Below are positions 44,777-50,600 of a stretch of 64,000 nt of DNA, piece by piece. The notes beneath the pieces are model-generated. The model searched no databases. It had not been told where the DNA came from and saw only the letters and a list, made by a program, of their open reading frames with translations. The translations under genes were made by a program, and so were the position numbers. Location: the sequence record NC_070966.1. One strand, given 5' to 3'. Within the stretch, counting starts at the first letter, position 1. Each line of letters starts with the position of its first letter.

Positions 44777-45460
44777 CTAACGAATGTTGTCCAAGAACCA
44801 TCCTTGGACTTCCTTCTTAGTAGGAAGTATTGCAGGTTGGAATTGGAGAGTTACCTTAGCATAAAGTGGTTTATTCGTACCCTTCACAGTCTCTTTCGAG
44901 AATACTGTAGATACACTCATCAGTACGAGTCGACTAGCTCTAAACCAATTGGCATATTGGATTGACCATGTCCCTCGTAGTGAATTTCTGAATGAGTCTT
45001 CTCCGACATTAGCATCAACATCTGGTGTCCATCCGTCCATACTAATATCGACGATCTTCGAACTGTACCCATAAGGTGCTTGAAGAAGTGGAAAGGAGTA
45101 TTCAGGAGTAACACCACCATAGAGATATTTAATATCGTCAAAGATATTAACATTTCTATTGTAAGTGATAAGAGTGATAGGGATTACGAACGTCGGTTTA
45201 CTTGAACCATTCCATCTCGATAATGTCTGCTGGAGTGATTTAACAACTCTCTGAGTCATACCGAATGGATTGGTAGCTGCATTTAAGAATTTACTGGCTG
45301 CTTCACCTAGACTGGCTGAGTCTGCATCGCTGAATTCACTAGTAATGTCGAAGCCAAAATCGGCTTCGACAAGTGCAGTGATGGCTCTACCTGGACCAGC
45401 AATCATAACTGTAGCATTTCCATTTTTCTTAAGAGATTCTACATAGAGAGATTTTGTCAT
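44777..45460 (-). CDS. Tail tube initiator / baseplate-tube junction protein
   Basis: Position after the tape measure; P.F.I.L and YAKVTLQF. Confidence 0.55.
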   Translation of the reverse strand: MTKSLYVESLKKNGNATVMIAGPGRAITALVEADFGFDITSEFSDADSASLGEAASKFLNAATNPFGMTQRVVKSLQQTLSRWNGSSKPTFVIPITLITYNRNVNIFDDIKYLYGGVTPEYSFPLLQAPYGYSSKIVDISMDGWTPDVDANVGEDSFRNSLRGTWSIQYANWFRASRLVLMSVSTVFSKETVKGTNKPLYAKVTLQFQPAILPTKKEVQGWFLDNIR

Positions 45461-48400
45461 CCTAGAAACATCTGTTGGAACATAGATATACCAAGATCGT
45501 CGATAGAGTTCTTCGTGTCCTTAGCAGTGGATGTATTCATAGCAGTCTGAAGACTAGCTGGAGCAGCTGCAGCAGGAGCTTGAGATATATTAGGTGCAAC
45601 AGTAGGTGGTTGTATTCTGTTGACGTTAGGCATATCCATCTGAGGGACAACTGTAGTTCTCACTTTTCTAGGATCTGTACCTTGAGGAGTGAAATTAGGT
45701 CCGTTCAGATAAGCATCTGCTTCAGCATCAGTATACTTGTACTCAGGATTAACTCCTGCGAGACCTTGATCGATAAGTCTCTGAGACTCCTTCGATACGA
45801 TAGGTCCACCTTCGTTATTGTAGTTCCAGAATTTAGCACGATCGGTATGTTTATCCATATGGATACCACCACCGCTCATCTGCATTCCTACTCCACCATA
45901 ACCTGAAGCAATATATCCTTGACTTACTCTTGCATACTCTTCTTGAGAGATCTGCTTGCCATCAGGTCCGATAATCTTAAGGTCTGCAGCACCTCCATGG
46001 TCGTGACGAGTTGATCCTGTACGAGGACCTCCTTCTTCCTTACCATTTTGACCACCACTATATACCTCTACACGGTATCCTGGACCTAGAGTCTTGTAAA
46101 CACTTCTGGCAATATTTCTCTTCAGATCAGGTTCAATACCTTGCTTACGAATACCAGCTGTCTGACCTTGATTCTCTGAAACAATCTTATCTACACCTGC
46201 TGATCCTTGACCTGGACCAAAGTTAGGCATCATAAGGGACATTCCAGATCCAGGACTTGCACCTAATAAATTGAAATTAGGCTTACCAGAAGCTTGAGTA
46301 TCGTTAAGATACTGGCTACGTTTACCTATTTCACCTGAAGGATTCTGAGGTCTCTCAAACCCACTAATATGTGCAGACATTGCCTCTGCAGCAGTTGTGG
46401 CAGACATGATCTTAGCATTGGCTCTAGATTCAGATCCTAACATCTCTTGACGATAGTACTGTTGTTGAACACCAACGTCAGTCCAATCTTTTCCTTGAGA
46501 TGCAGCGAACTTCTTCAGATCAGTGAATCTCGTAGATCCATTTCTGGAACTATCGTGCCACTGAGCAGTACCACCTGATTCACCGTCAACGTCATTAGCA
46601 TTGTAAGCAGCAGAATTCAGACCAGATCCACTCTCGCCTCTCATCGAAGCGATTTCACCTCTAGCTTGTTCAGGAGTTCTTCCTAGTCCACCTTGAGATA
46701 CTGGTTTGGTTAAGAAATCATACCAACTCTTAACGTTGTCATTAGCGCCTGATCCACTGATACCTGGTTTAGACAAGTCTTGAGCAGATGCTCCTAACAT
46801 CTTGAAGTTACTACCAGATGATCCTGAGAATCCTGCAGATTGAGGCATATTGCTATTGGAGAAACTCCCTTTACCATCTCCGAGGAATCCGGAGTTGAAT
46901 AAGTTAGCTCTCTGTCTTTCAGCAGCGATCTGTTGAGGAGTCTTAGCTGAACGACCTGATCTTCTTGATCGACCTGATCCTCCACCACCTCCAAATCCTG
47001 CTGAACTTGATCCTCCTAATCCAGGGAGACCATCTGCAGGATTATAACTGATCCCCGATGCAGACACTCCTGCTCCAGGATAATTAGGTAGACCTGAATT
47101 GAAATTCAAGCGAGGATTAAGTTCCTTAGCTATCTTCTTAGCTAAGTCTTCTCTTTCCTTCTCTCTTTCTCTATTCAATTGACTTTCAGATTTACGAGAA
47201 TCTTCAAGTGATTTCTGACCGAGTCCAAGCCAGCTTCTAGGAGTACCTATATTATCGAGGATCCATTTATCCAGACCTTCAGCACTCTTACTGTTCTTCT
47301 CAATAAACTTCTGAAGTTCTTTAGGATCAGTAGGTATCTCATCTACAAGACTGTATGCTGTATAAGCTCCGATGAGTGGAACTGCTTTACCTAGGACCTT
47401 ACCAAGTACCGAAGACGATCCTTTGAAGATACCTCCAACAGATCCTCCTTTACCTTTCAGCCATCCTAAGAGTCCACCTCCACCAGCTGCTCCTCCACCG
47501 ATTCCGAGAGCATCCTTCCAATTCAATCCACCACCGTCAGCAATACCTGCTAACATACCTAGTAGACCTTTGGATGCTTTCTTTTCACGAAGACTATCTG
47601 AGATGTTGTCTCTATTAATAGCCTCACTGATTTCAGAGATAGACTTCTCTTCAAGACGAATCTGCGTCATTTGATTGTTGATCATCTTAGTCTGAGTAAC
47701 CTCAGATTCTTTAAGTTGATCAATAACAGTCTTGTTAGACTTAGCTAGACTCTGAATTCCTGTCTTGATTTCTTCAAGATTTTCAGAGTCATCTTCTTGA
47801 CGCTTCTCATCTGCAGCACTAGACTCTTTATCCACACTCGCGAACTTATTCAGATAGTCTTTCTTAGAATATCTGCCTCGGAGTTTACTGAGTCCTACTT
47901 TAGTAACACCAGATAGTCGATCCGATATTCCAAGAATATCATCGATACCGTGAAGTCCTAGTGAGCCAAAACCTACTCCATAGATGTCCTTAATGAGATC
48001 GTCTGGATTGAATCGACCAGGATTTTTCAGGAATGCATCTTTAAATTTCTCGCTACCGACTTTTCGATTATCGAGATTGACACGTTCTCTGTGAGAGTAG
48101 AGTGACAAGTCAGAGGATCTTTTCAGATCCATGACACTGATCTTCTTTGCTTGCTGTTCTAATTTCTTGATGGCTGCATCAAGATTCTGATTGGAACGAT
48201 CTTGATCATATATACTATATGATCCTGAGACTCCACTTTTAGACAGAACTTTATTAAGTTCTCTAACAGCTTTCTTCTTAATGTCACTTGAGTAATGCTT
48301 TGTACTCAAGAGTGCACGGTAGTTATTAATCACGTCTTGAACGTTGACGTAGACCATAAGATCTGACGCTTCAGCATCCTTAACGAGATCTGCTACACGT

Positions 48401-48669
48401 GAACGTAATTTACGAATAGAGATAGCGTCTGAACGATCAAGATCTCTTTTATGCTTATAGATCTTCTCGTTCAGACGTGCTAGTTCATTGAAATCAGATT
48501 GACTTAATCTACGATTAGTCTCAGCGTCGAATTTACGAAGATTATTCATCGTCATCTTAAATTCGACGAGTTCTTCTTCGACCTCAAGTCTCAGTTTTCT
48601 GAGTTCTTTATCTGAGATTTTAGATCCATTATCTCTGTCGGGATGAGATCCCTCGCGGGTCGTTACCAT
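45457..48669 (-). CDS. Tape measure protein with tail-lysozyme and M15-like peptidase domains
   Basis: Helical N-terminus; MRGESG..GTAQWH..R (tail lysozyme); STRHDHGGAAD...GIHMD (M15 zinc peptidase). Confidence 0.8.
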   Translation of the reverse strand: MVTTREGSHPDRDNGSKISDKELRKLRLEVEEELVEFKMTMNNLRKFDAETNRRLSQSDFNELARLNEKIYKHKRDLDRSDAISIRKLRSRVADLVKDAEASDLMVYVNVQDVINNYRALLSTKHYSSDIKKKAVRELNKVLSKSGVSGSYSIYDQDRSNQNLDAAIKKLEQQAKKISVMDLKRSSDLSLYSHRERVNLDNRKVGSEKFKDAFLKNPGRFNPDDLIKDIYGVGFGSLGLHGIDDILGISDRLSGVTKVGLSKLRGRYSKKDYLNKFASVDKESSAADEKRQEDDSENLEEIKTGIQSLAKSNKTVIDQLKESEVTQTKMINNQMTQIRLEEKSISEISEAINRDNISDSLREKKASKGLLGMLAGIADGGGLNWKDALGIGGGAAGGGGLLGWLKGKGGSVGGIFKGSSSVLGKVLGKAVPLIGAYTAYSLVDEIPTDPKELQKFIEKNSKSAEGLDKWILDNIGTPRSWLGLGQKSLEDSRKSESQLNREREKEREDLAKKIAKELNPRLNFNSGLPNYPGAGVSASGISYNPADGLPGLGGSSSAGFGGGGGSGRSRRSGRSAKTPQQIAAERQRANLFNSGFLGDGKGSFSNSNMPQSAGFSGSSGSNFKMLGASAQDLSKPGISGSGANDNVKSWYDFLTKPVSQGGLGRTPEQARGEIASMRGESGSGLNSAAYNANDVDGESGGTAQWHDSSRNGSTRFTDLKKFAASQGKDWTDVGVQQQYYRQEMLGSESRANAKIMSATTAAEAMSAHISGFERPQNPSGEIGKRSQYLNDTQASGKPNFNLLGASPGSGMSLMMPNFGPGQGSAGVDKIVSENQGQTAGIRKQGIEPDLKRNIARSVYKTLGPGYRVEVYSGGQNGKEEGGPRTGSTRHDHGGAADLKIIGPDGKQISQEEYARVSQGYIASGYGGVGMQMSGGGIHMDKHTDRAKFWNYNNEGGPIVSKESQRLIDQGLAGVNPEYKYTDAEADAYLNGPNFTPQGTDPRKVRTTVVPQMDMPNVNRIQPPTVAPNISQAPAAAAPASLQTAMNTSTAKDTKNSIDDLGISMFQQMFLG

Positions 48670-48805
48670 TCTTCATCTCCTCTTGGAGTCTCTCGTAGAT
48701 GTAGGTAGCTTCCACATAGTCAAGGGATTTCAGACTCATAGGATCAGCGTTCAGGTAGAATGCCAAACCGAACGACATTTCTAACAGACTCTGCGGATTG
48801 ACGAA
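48629..48805 (-). CDS. Putative +1 frameshift extension of the tail assembly chaperone
   Basis: Open +1 frame from the CCC TTT CGT site (48809-48801): FVNPQSLLEMSFGLAFYLNADPMSLKSLDYVEATYIYERLQEEMKNGNDPRGISSRQR*. Confidence 0.65.
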   Translation of the reverse strand, partial: FVNPQSLLEMSFGLAFYLNADPMSLKSLDYVEATYIYERLQEEMKNGNDPRGISSRQR

Positions 48806-49529
48806 AGGGAAATATCAAATCATTGATATCCTCCATCGCCAAATGGTTATCCGCACCACAATGACTACATTTAGTTTCAATTGACTGTCTGCCAAGATAC
48901 ATCATCTTGTCTACGTAATTGAGCATATCAAGAAGATCGCCAGTAGCGTTCTCGATAATGCCCTTTGCTGTACTATAAGGCAGGTTACTTACAGATCTCG
49001 CGAAAATCTCGAGACCTTTATCCTCGTCTTCATCTTCATCAAAGTCGATCTTTAAGTAATTACCGACTGAGAGTGGCATAATGTGTAAATCAATGTCATC
49101 TCCGACAGGGATCACAGCAGGAAGTGCTGGAACTTGAATATCGGAGAATTCAATATTTGACAATTCATGTGTTTGAGAATTTGATTCCTCGCACGAATTG
49201 CATCTAAATCTGCTGGTAAACTTAGTATGGGAGAATGAAGAGATCTTTCTCAGAGATGAGACATAGAGAAAATCGTAATACGACAGATCGTTCTTATCGA
49301 ATCCCTCTGTAGTAATGCCGTCCAGTACGAATAGGAATCGATCTCGTAAGCTCAATTTGGATGAGCTGAACTTCTGAAGTTCACCGTAAGTGAATGGAAC
49401 ATACTTAACGGTCGAGCCCTTCGGGTATGGAAGGAACTTGGATGGCAGATCTCTTACTTGAATAATAGGTAGATGTGACTTATCAGATGCTGCTTTAGTT
49501 AAGTCAGCTAAATTGTCTATGACTTTCAT
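48744..49529 (-). CDS. Tail assembly chaperone / baseplate hub assembly protein (T4 gp26-like)
   Basis: LPSKFLPY..PFTYGE; two CxxC pairs; lies between the tube genes and the tape measure. Confidence 0.7.
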   Translation of the reverse strand: MKVIDNLADLTKAASDKSHLPIIQVRDLPSKFLPYPKGSTVKYVPFTYGELQKFSSSKLSLRDRFLFVLDGITTEGFDKNDLSYYDFLYVSSLRKISSFSHTKFTSRFRCNSCEESNSQTHELSNIEFSDIQVPALPAVIPVGDDIDLHIMPLSVGNYLKIDFDEDEDEDKGLEIFARSVSNLPYSTAKGIIENATGDLLDMLNYVDKMMYLGRQSIETKCSHCGADNHLAMEDINDLIFPFRQSAESVRNVVRFGILPER

Positions 49530-49554
49530 TTCTGTTTATCCTCTAGAAATAGCG

Positions 49555-50040
49555 TTAGCTATCTTGATGCCCTACAACGTTGAATGCAACAGAGTAGAGC
49601 TTTAAATCTGCTTGTGAGTTCAAAGATTCCTGAACATTACCATCTGGGTAAGCAAAGTATGTAGTTGACTTAATGATATTCTTCTTAGTATCCAACTTAC
49701 ACACGATAATCTCTCTGGCAGCATCATCAATGCACATAACGCCATCAGAGTCGTCGTAGATTTCATCGTGCCATGCTTGTAACCATGTTGATAATGATTT
49801 CTTAACACTATCTGCAAATGTCATCTGAAGTTCAGGAGTCGAACTATTTTGAGGAAATTTGTACTGCTTGAGAAAGAATGGAGTAGTGAATGAAGAACTA
49901 AAGATTCTATTCTCAGTAATATCAACTGCAGGAAACCATGCGTTGAAAGGTGATGGTGCAGAGGGAATACGAATATCCCATAGGTTAGTCGTACCCCACT
50001 GCACTTCACGTAGTTGATCAATGGACTTGAGGAATGGCAT
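49555..50040 (-). CDS. Tail tube-like protein (second tube paralogue)
   Basis: WGTTNLWDI parallels WATTVNWNL of the tube protein; YKFP..LQMTF..W. Confidence 0.65.
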   Translation of the reverse strand: MPFLKSIDQLREVQWGTTNLWDIRIPSAPSPFNAWFPAVDITENRIFSSSFTTPFFLKQYKFPQNSSTPELQMTFADSVKKSLSTWLQAWHDEIYDDSDGVMCIDDAAREIIVCKLDTKKNIIKSTTYFAYPDGNVQESLNSQADLKLYSVAFNVVGHQDS

Positions 50041-50072: not shown

Positions 50073-50600
50073 TTATAGAGGAGTGTCTTCAAAGTAATCA
50101 TACGAGATAGTGAGCGTAGGCTTCAGGATGTCCGCAGACTGACCCTGAAGCTGACCACCAGCATCGTAATCTTCTAGATAACAACCAAGTAGGTTGTACT
50201 CCCAGATGGGAACGTCTCTACGGTTGAGACGTTCGATCTTAATCATGCATTCAACTTGAGACTTCTCTTGCTGAACACCTGTCTTCGTTTCAGAGCAGAT
50301 TTCTCTCCAGTTACGAATGAACGTAGAGATCTTGTTATCGACCGATTCGTTCATTGTAAGAGTAATCGTACCAGACGGTAGATAGAGACCTGGCTGCTTA
50401 ACACGATGACCACGGATCATAATTTCAGTTGATGTACCTGTCGACTTAGGAATGTCGGTTGATTCACAACGTAGGTTCAGATCCTGAAAGGTTACAGTTC
50501 TAGCTAGAGCTCTTGGAAACGTGACGAATGTCAAGTTCCAGTTAACTGTAGTAGCCCAGTCACCTACATTTCTAACATTTTCAATAGTTGGACGAGCCAT
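50073..50600 (-). CDS. Tail tube protein (gp19-like)
   Basis: CESTDIP..IRGHRVKQPG..TITLT..W..YNLLGC..YD. Confidence 0.85.
   Translation of the reverse strand: MARPTIENVRNVGDWATTVNWNLTFVTFPRALARTVTFQDLNLRCESTDIPKSTGTSTEIMIRGHRVKQPGLYLPSGTITLTMNESVDNKISTFIRNWREICSETKTGVQQEKSQVECMIKIERLNRRDVPIWEYNLLGCYLEDYDAGGQLQGQSADILKPTLTISYDYFEDTPL

Follow-up and report, generated by a model that had tools for sequence, protein, structure and literature searches.

In phage lambda, two overlapping reading frames precede the tape measure gene and give rise to a short major form, gpG, and a long minor form, gpGT (PMC5009743). The same arrangement recurs in P2 (E/E+E') and in Mu (-2), and the G/GT frameshift as such is textbook matter. 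The shift in lambda is -1 and occurs on a tandem XXXYYYZ heptamer. Forward shifts that extend tail-related proteins have also been reported, in gene families other than the one considered here: the G/GT shift of halovirus HSTV-2 is very likely +1 (PMC5009743), +1 shifts are given for Listeria phage Tsh and for SPP1 gp17.1 (PMC3498833), and forward shifts are annotated at 350 of 2718 sites in the SEA-PHAGES genomes (PMC10885494). The accessible sections of these accounts describe no UUU-CGU site in a gene of the family PF12322. Such a site, UCC_UUU_CGU, serves in influenza A virus for the synthesis of PA-X, with a frameshift efficiency of about 1% (PMC3498833), and UUU-Ynn is considered +1-prone in bacteria (PMC5009743).

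The PF12322 proteins of phage T4, gp26 and gp51, are encoded by two separate genes and are given as hub assembly chaperones (PMC3004832). In one public record both are labelled tape measure assembly chaperones. Vladimirov, Gautam and Davidson are said to have proposed in 2022 that gp26 and gp51 are the tail assembly chaperone (TAC) genes of T4-like phages, and the abstract of their study reportedly mentions frameshifting in several T4-like groups; that study may already cover part of the present finding.

Here we analysed a stretch of 64,000 nucleotides from record NC_070966.1 (referred to as the window). Our main reading, to which we assign a probability of roughly 0.88 on the basis of comparative sequence analysis, is that a single gene of this phage would yield tail assembly chaperones of 261 and 299 aa by means of a +1 slip on UUU-C at codon 242.

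Gene order and identity of the chaperone gene

Region 48500-49600 of the window is identical in four public Rhizobium phage records (RHph_TM30, TM2_3B, TM3_3_6 and TM39) and more than 99% identical in three further Rhizobium phage records; the family is Kleczkowskaviridae. On the minus strand, the sheath and tube genes are followed by a weakly tube-like gene, the gene for the 261-aa protein (G), a 1070-aa gene with a lysozyme domain and baseplate genes (Table 1). The 1070-aa gene is likely to be the tape measure gene, as suggested by its position, its length and the lysozyme domain (PF18013, E 1e-14 at residues 663-787, Pfam); an Atlas lead to T4_Tape_measure reached 0.85 only, with no family hit. 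The gene starts behind a strong Shine-Dalgarno (SD) sequence of its own at 48682-48677. Two overlapping frames, G and the +1-frame extension T, lie between the tail tube gene and this putative tape measure gene, as in lambda-type G/GT loci.

Table 1. Positions of the genes and signals discussed in the text, numbered along the window.
Feature	Position	Strand	Basis
Tail tube gene	50073..50600	-	phrog_45, E 1e-12
161-aa gene between tube and chaperone genes, weakly tube-like	49555..50040	-	phrog_3629, E 0.04 (weak)
G, 261-aa tail assembly chaperone of the T4 gp26/gp51 family (PF12322), zero frame	48744..49529	-	
Predicted +1 shift site CCC-UUU-CGU (E, P and A codons)	48801..48809	-	Sequence and codon conservation
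T, +1-frame extension, 57 codons and TAA	48629..48802	-	HMM, synonymous excess, model
Internal SD-like GGAGG, candidate frameshift modulator, 23 nt before UUU	48830..48834	-	
TGA stop of the +1 frame shortly before the site	48815..48817	-	Sequence
ATG inside G (T codon 9), taken as a start by some public records	48776..48778	-	
1070-aa gene with tail lysozyme domain, likely tape measure gene	45457..48669	-	

Judged by its sequence, G is a chaperone of the T4 gp26/gp51 family: it matches PF12322 with 29.2 bits against a cut-off of 24.5 (E 9e-7, Pfam) and phrog_150 with E 4e-8 (PHROG), and its profile aligns to T4 gp51 with a probability of 91-92 in hhalign, the match to gp26 being weak (20). 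The predicted model of G (pLDDT 89.7) resembles T4-like hub chaperones in BFVD (Foldseek, E 1e-8). Among 48,161 solved chains, the best match is the HK97 tail assembly chaperone 2OB9 (Z 4.5, rmsd 5.6, 84 residues aligned), and matches 2, 4 and 5 are prophage or satellite proteins (3KLU, 3FGX and 5IR0), of which we take the first two to be chaperone-like; all PDB Z-scores, at 4.5 or below, are within the range of unrelated matches. The four TAC-like entries at the top of this ranking (Z at most 4.5) and the hub chaperone matches of the model would fit a chaperone role. The protein also contains two CxxC pairs (residues 110-113 and 221-224, in 49529-48744) with zinc-ribbon matches, which probably form one zinc site; the pairs are not present in the members from Vibrio and Pseudomonas phages. 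Public labels of G homologues include peptidase, DNA methylase and hypothetical protein.

Predicted shift site and products

Positions 48812-48801 of the minus strand read TTT CCC TTT CGT in frame with the 261-aa ORF (49529-48744). The second TTT (48806-48804) is codon 242, and 19 sense codons separate it from the zero-frame stop. The +1 frame runs from 48802 through 57 residues to a TAA ending at 48629, its last 41 nt being shared with the 1070-aa gene, whose ATG is at 48669; the -1 frame shuts after 7 codons. Since the +1 frame is closed by a TGA at 48817-48815, it could be entered only within the four codons before the site. The predicted products are proteins of 261 aa (29.6 kDa) and 299 aa (33.9 kDa). 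A preliminary description of the locus had given the same coordinates, frames and product sizes, every number of which we reproduced from the sequence. It had noted that the ORF track misses the +1 frame; among public records, the frame is missed in RHph_TM40 but not in RHph_TM30, for which a 49-aa hypothetical protein is listed from the ATG at 48778. Annotation of such genes, in which the extension is either overlooked or called a separate protein, would be corrected accordingly.

Within the window, an in-frame TTTCG in the last 40 codons occurs in one of the 49 ATG-started ORFs of at least 150 aa, namely in G itself. In these 49 ORFs, CCC accounts for 2% of Pro codons, TTT for 38% of Phe codons and CGT for 34% of Arg codons. 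No tRNA genes are present in the 64,000 nt, and near the site no promoter or terminator signals were found above chance.

Most ribosomes would end at the zero-frame stop and release the 261-aa protein; in a smaller fraction, a forward slip of one base on the UUU-C at codon 242 would add a helical domain of 57 residues. If the process resembles that of PA-X, the peptidyl-tRNA-Phe would re-pair from UUU to the preferred UUC while the E site holds CCC and the A site, where CGU is next to be read, is empty. By analogy with lambda G/GT, the short form may coat the tape measure and the long form recruit the tube protein, the slip setting the G:GT ratio at a few percent. With CGU making up 34% of Arg codons, and hence not rare in this phage, there is no sign of a hungry-codon pause; candidate causes of a pause are the CCC in the E site and the SD-like tract upstream. 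Structure 3' of the site is not evident either, with z -0.11 in the window and, across 36 homologues, a mean z of -0.37 and no consensus fold.

The same frame would also be reached by a ribosomal slip of -2, which phage Mu uses in its G/GT gene (PMC3498833) and which would give an identical frame with one more residue, or by slippage of RNA polymerase with the loss of one base. In the first case, inspection of the sequence shows that tRNA-Phe would need CCU as its pairing partner. In the second, the longest base runs comprise 3-4 bases, and runs of this length are short for transcriptional slippage. We therefore regard either route as extremely improbable.

Sampling of homologues

Homologues were collected without reference to the site. 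Eleven distant phage records came from tblastn (11 of 15 distant hits were taken), and 52 viral contigs and two metagenome contigs were retrieved with a pattern for an N-terminal protein motif that does not touch the shift site. Together with the window and L092, 67 loci were examined, all of which matched the family HMM. Five incomplete loci were dropped, dereplication at 70% reduced the set to 43, and L092 was excluded because it had been found by the site, leaving 42 homologues including the window. They are mostly 23-38% identical to the window protein. Third-position information, and the counts of ATG at T codon 9 and of SD pairing at starts, refer to the 36 members that could be anchored without gaps, six being left out. 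Kinship among the homologues means that p-values overstate their independence; inherited synonymous codons are unlikely, since identities are near 30%.

Other searches added little. A DNA pattern built on the site retrieved 119 loci, of which one was a homologue (L092, left out of all statistics), and patterns with shorter spacing gave 0, 0 and 2 loci. No relative was found when viral contigs were searched with the single G protein, and alignments contained no usable conserved stretch. Natural in-frame fusions of G and T were absent from 7994 longer candidates, which is weak evidence, and none was significant among 152 stored proteins. Three homologues with the site and the extension were identified later in two Pseudoalteromonas genome contigs (L196 and L197) and one Deferribacterales bin (L195); the DNA is possibly that of prophages or of co-assembled phages.

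Codon-level conservation of the site

Phe242 is encoded by TTT in 39/39 homologues, against a background of 58% elsewhere in the same genes (binomial p 6e-10, for related sequences). Arg243 is CGN in 35/35 and CGT in 32/35 (background 15%), and Pro241 is CCC in 32/41 (background 17%), the remaining nine having CCG, CCA or CCT. At nine further columns of these genes where Phe, Arg or Pro is conserved, codon usage is mixed in the usual way. TTT is followed by C in 37 of the 39 and by T in the other two. At the protein level, 151 further homologues have Pro, Phe and Arg at positions 241-243 in 148, 145 and 137 cases, respectively. Three members lack TTT at the codon-242 column and have UUU-C a few codons upstream: TTT-CCC-TAT in Va2, TTT-TTT-CGT three codons upstream in L172 and CCG-TTT-CCA about ten codons upstream in L175. 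These three sites, which were chosen manually, are all within the stretch where the +1 frame is open. An in-frame UUU-Y that opens the +1 frame is thereby present in 42/42 homologues. Two of the three later loci have CCC-TTT-CGC and the third, L195, has lost the Pro and reads AAA-TTT-CGT. Conservation of the site in relatives had been named beforehand as a check, and the site is indeed kept at the codon level at 23-38% protein identity.

The preference for CCC at Pro241, in a phage where it makes up 2% of the Pro codons of the window, raises the question whether tRNA-Pro slips on CCC-U, either by itself or in tandem with tRNA-Phe. CCC-UUU-C would allow both tRNAs to re-pair in the +1 frame, and the TTT-CCC-TAT of Va2 could be read in the same way. 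However, the invariant TTT is also preceded by CCG, CCA and CCT (9/41) and by AAA in L195. Because L195 and the members with other codons keep UUU-Y, it is UUU-Y rather than Pro that is the constant element, and we consider slippage of this kind in place of that by tRNA-Phe improbable. It would alter the step but not the outcome, and may contribute alongside the slip on UUU-C.

The preliminary description had compared the site to the UCC UUU CGU of PA-X. This holds for UUU-CGU, which is conserved, but not for the E-site codon, which is CCC (32/41, with other Pro codons in nine) instead of UCC and is dispensable in some members. An in-frame UUU followed by C, an A-site CGN with CGU preferred, a restricted E-site codon and the lack of evident 3' structure are common to both, and in the phage genes the first two are conserved at the codon level. 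Differences, besides the E-site codon, are the bacterial ribosome, the fact that CGU is not rare and the SD-like tract upstream. With respect to lambda, the site does not conform to the -1 heptamer type, and the N-terminal domain is of the 260-aa PF12322 type, unlike lambda G.

The extension is a coding sequence

In 42/42 homologues the +1 frame continues for 42-79 aa before a stop, and from the codon directly after the slip onward it can be aligned with hardly any gaps. A leave-one-out HMM of the 41 relatives recovers T of the window with E 1.7e-14, the next ORF having E 1.3. In the 36 anchored members, third positions of the zero frame carry 0.19 bits of information before the site and 0.88 bits in the overlap, an increase which indicates that coding in the +1 frame starts before the internal ATG. 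Among ten close pairs, which partly share members, codon changes in the T frame are synonymous in 70 cases and non-synonymous in 41, compared with 14/101 and 6/107 (synonymous/non-synonymous) in the other two frames. By these sequence measures T is coding and under purifying selection.

The predicted model of T comprises three helices (pLDDT 82.5). Searches of T against Pfam and PHROG, including the gp51 C-domain family, gave no convincing match. Against T4 gp51 itself, E-values of 0.41 and 0.1 are not significant, the latter coming from an hhalign alignment of T with the final 43 columns of gp51; Foldseek matches to cyanophage Gp51 (E 1.6) and to a Microbacterium phage TAC (E 0.83) are weak. 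A relationship of T to the gp51 C-domain or to TAC-C is suggestive only. The conserved IRFG end of G (residues 253-256; 48780-48755, minus strand) overlaps a conserved L-A of the +1 frame, and the TTT-GGC found there meets the needs of both frames.

T could alternatively be a separate small protein, made from an internal start such as the ATG at 48778, whether ribosomes initiate there independently or re-initiate once G has terminated, in which case Pro-Phe-Arg would be conserved for the sake of the protein. Several public records do annotate T as a CDS of its own, and a possible start up to T codon 10 in the +1 frame is common: some ATG is present in 25/42 homologues and some ATG, GTG or TTG in 35/42. 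In 11/42, a start 3-12 nt after the upstream SD-like tract reads into T (9 TTG, 2 ATG). Yet 7/42 offer none of these three start codons up to T codon 10, and in the window the ATG that follows the upstream tract is closed by the TGA after two codons. The internal ATG, whose role as the origin of the product was another check named beforehand, is kept at T codon 9 in only 9/36 and lacks an SD in the window (-2.4 kcal/mol). SD pairing of -5 kcal/mol or stronger precedes T codons 1, 9 and 13 in 0, 3 and 3 of the 36 members, as opposed to 25/36 for the starts of G. GTG is frequent at T codon 1 as a by-product of CGT-G, with an SD in 0/36. Moreover, conservation of the +1 frame starts upstream of the internal ATG, and a need at the protein level does not explain TTT in 39/39 and CGN in 35/35. 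The sequence data thus make separate initiation, with Pro-Phe-Arg conserved for the sake of the protein, very improbable as the source of T; in part of the family, separate initiation is possible.

A Shine-Dalgarno-like tract upstream of the site

When pairing with the anti-SD sequence was scanned along the genes, a strong signal appeared 14-22 nt before UUU. The gap between tract and UUU is 13-28 nt (median 19, mode 18; 13 nt in 4/42). The mean pairing energy of the family is -8.8 kcal/mol, compared with -5.5 +/- 0.35 kcal/mol for a synonymous null in which amino acids are fixed and codons are redrawn from each gene; 0/300 shuffles reach the observed value (z about -9), the test region having been set after the scan profile was seen. 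Pairing of -5 kcal/mol or stronger is found in 39/42 members, with 25 expected, and 27 control windows along the gene give z from -1.3 to +3.0. The tract is missing in 2-3 members. The three later loci have energies of -5.9, -7.8 and -10.8 kcal/mol, one of them being near-identical to L152. In the window itself, six nucleotides separate GGAGG from a downstream two-codon ORF of the +1 frame (ATG, ATT, TGA; 48823-48815, minus strand), and a similar arrangement is present only in L010.

SD sequences that stimulate frameshifting lie 3 nt upstream of the site in the +1 case of prfB and 9-14 nt upstream in -1 cases, and the rRNA-mRNA hybrid has been deduced to come apart once 5-7 nt are translated (PMC5009743). 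As in those systems, the tract described here lies 5' of the site within the coding sequence; its spacing of 13-28 nt, with a mode of 18, fits neither class. The chances are about even that the tract pairs with 16S rRNA during elongation and would slow the ribosome as it reaches the site. A long-range effect of an SD on the keeping of the frame, outside both textbook spacings, is possible.

Nearly as plausible, though falling short of even odds, is that the tract has nothing to do with the shift and reflects Gly, Glu or Asp codons, protection of the mRNA or initiation. Many members encode DGG or EV at this position, the tract of the window phage is not above its own synonymous null (p 0.49), and the spacing is broad and the test region was chosen post hoc. 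On the other hand, the family mean lies far beyond a null in which the amino acids are fixed, the control windows show no such signal, the encoded residues vary while the tract stays, 22/42 members have no start codon 3-12 nt downstream of it, and the later loci show it as well. The conserved tract may be a modulator of the proposed +1 slip.

Relation to other PF12322 genes

Five more distant gp26-like genes were compared. In Banach there are two genes, and the other four, from Aeromonas phage 65 and from Vibrio Bakedbeans, SD25 and Bhz51 (L198, L199, L201 and L202), have a U-rich run at the end and an open -1 frame of 59-68 aa. These runs match the poly-T -1 signals described in PMC12846349, where they are ascribed to Vladimirov, Gautam and Davidson (2022). 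The -1-frame extensions of the four phages are annotated as separate small genes. Within PF12322, a +1 clade would stand beside -1 and two-gene clades, so that, if the present reading is true, one chaperone family has arrived at three solutions, namely two genes, a -1 slip and a +1 slip.

The +1 UUU-C variant in PF12322 genes is very probably real and, like the conserved upstream tract, appears to be new. Our literature search, with most subscription papers outside its scope, found no account of a +1 or UUU-CGU shift in the PF12322 family or of an SD at such a distance, and the accessible parts of PMC12859696, PMC3711429 and PMC8718954 contain nothing bearing on such a shift. If true, the site would represent a natural and deeply conserved bacterial counterpart of the UUU-CGU +1 slip of PA-X. 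We advance only tentatively the broader proposal that a large clade of myophages, with Rhizobium, Escherichia, Vibrio, Pseudomonas, Acinetobacter and Thermus hosts, uses a PA-X-type +1 shift driven by a third class of SD stimulator, located about 18 nt upstream, the distance at which rRNA and mRNA would come apart. The site is present in two E. coli phages, so the shift can be tested in E. coli.

In 32/42 homologues, the stop codon of T falls within -17 to +14 nt of the best start of the next long gene, as picked heuristically. This is a hint that shifted ribosomes could also feed translation of the tape measure gene, or that the two are translationally coupled. The homologue of Thermus phage phiLo (L005:1474-2392) is annotated as a DNA methylase and lies away from the tail genes; it nonetheless retains CCG-TTT-CGT, the upstream SD and the extension.
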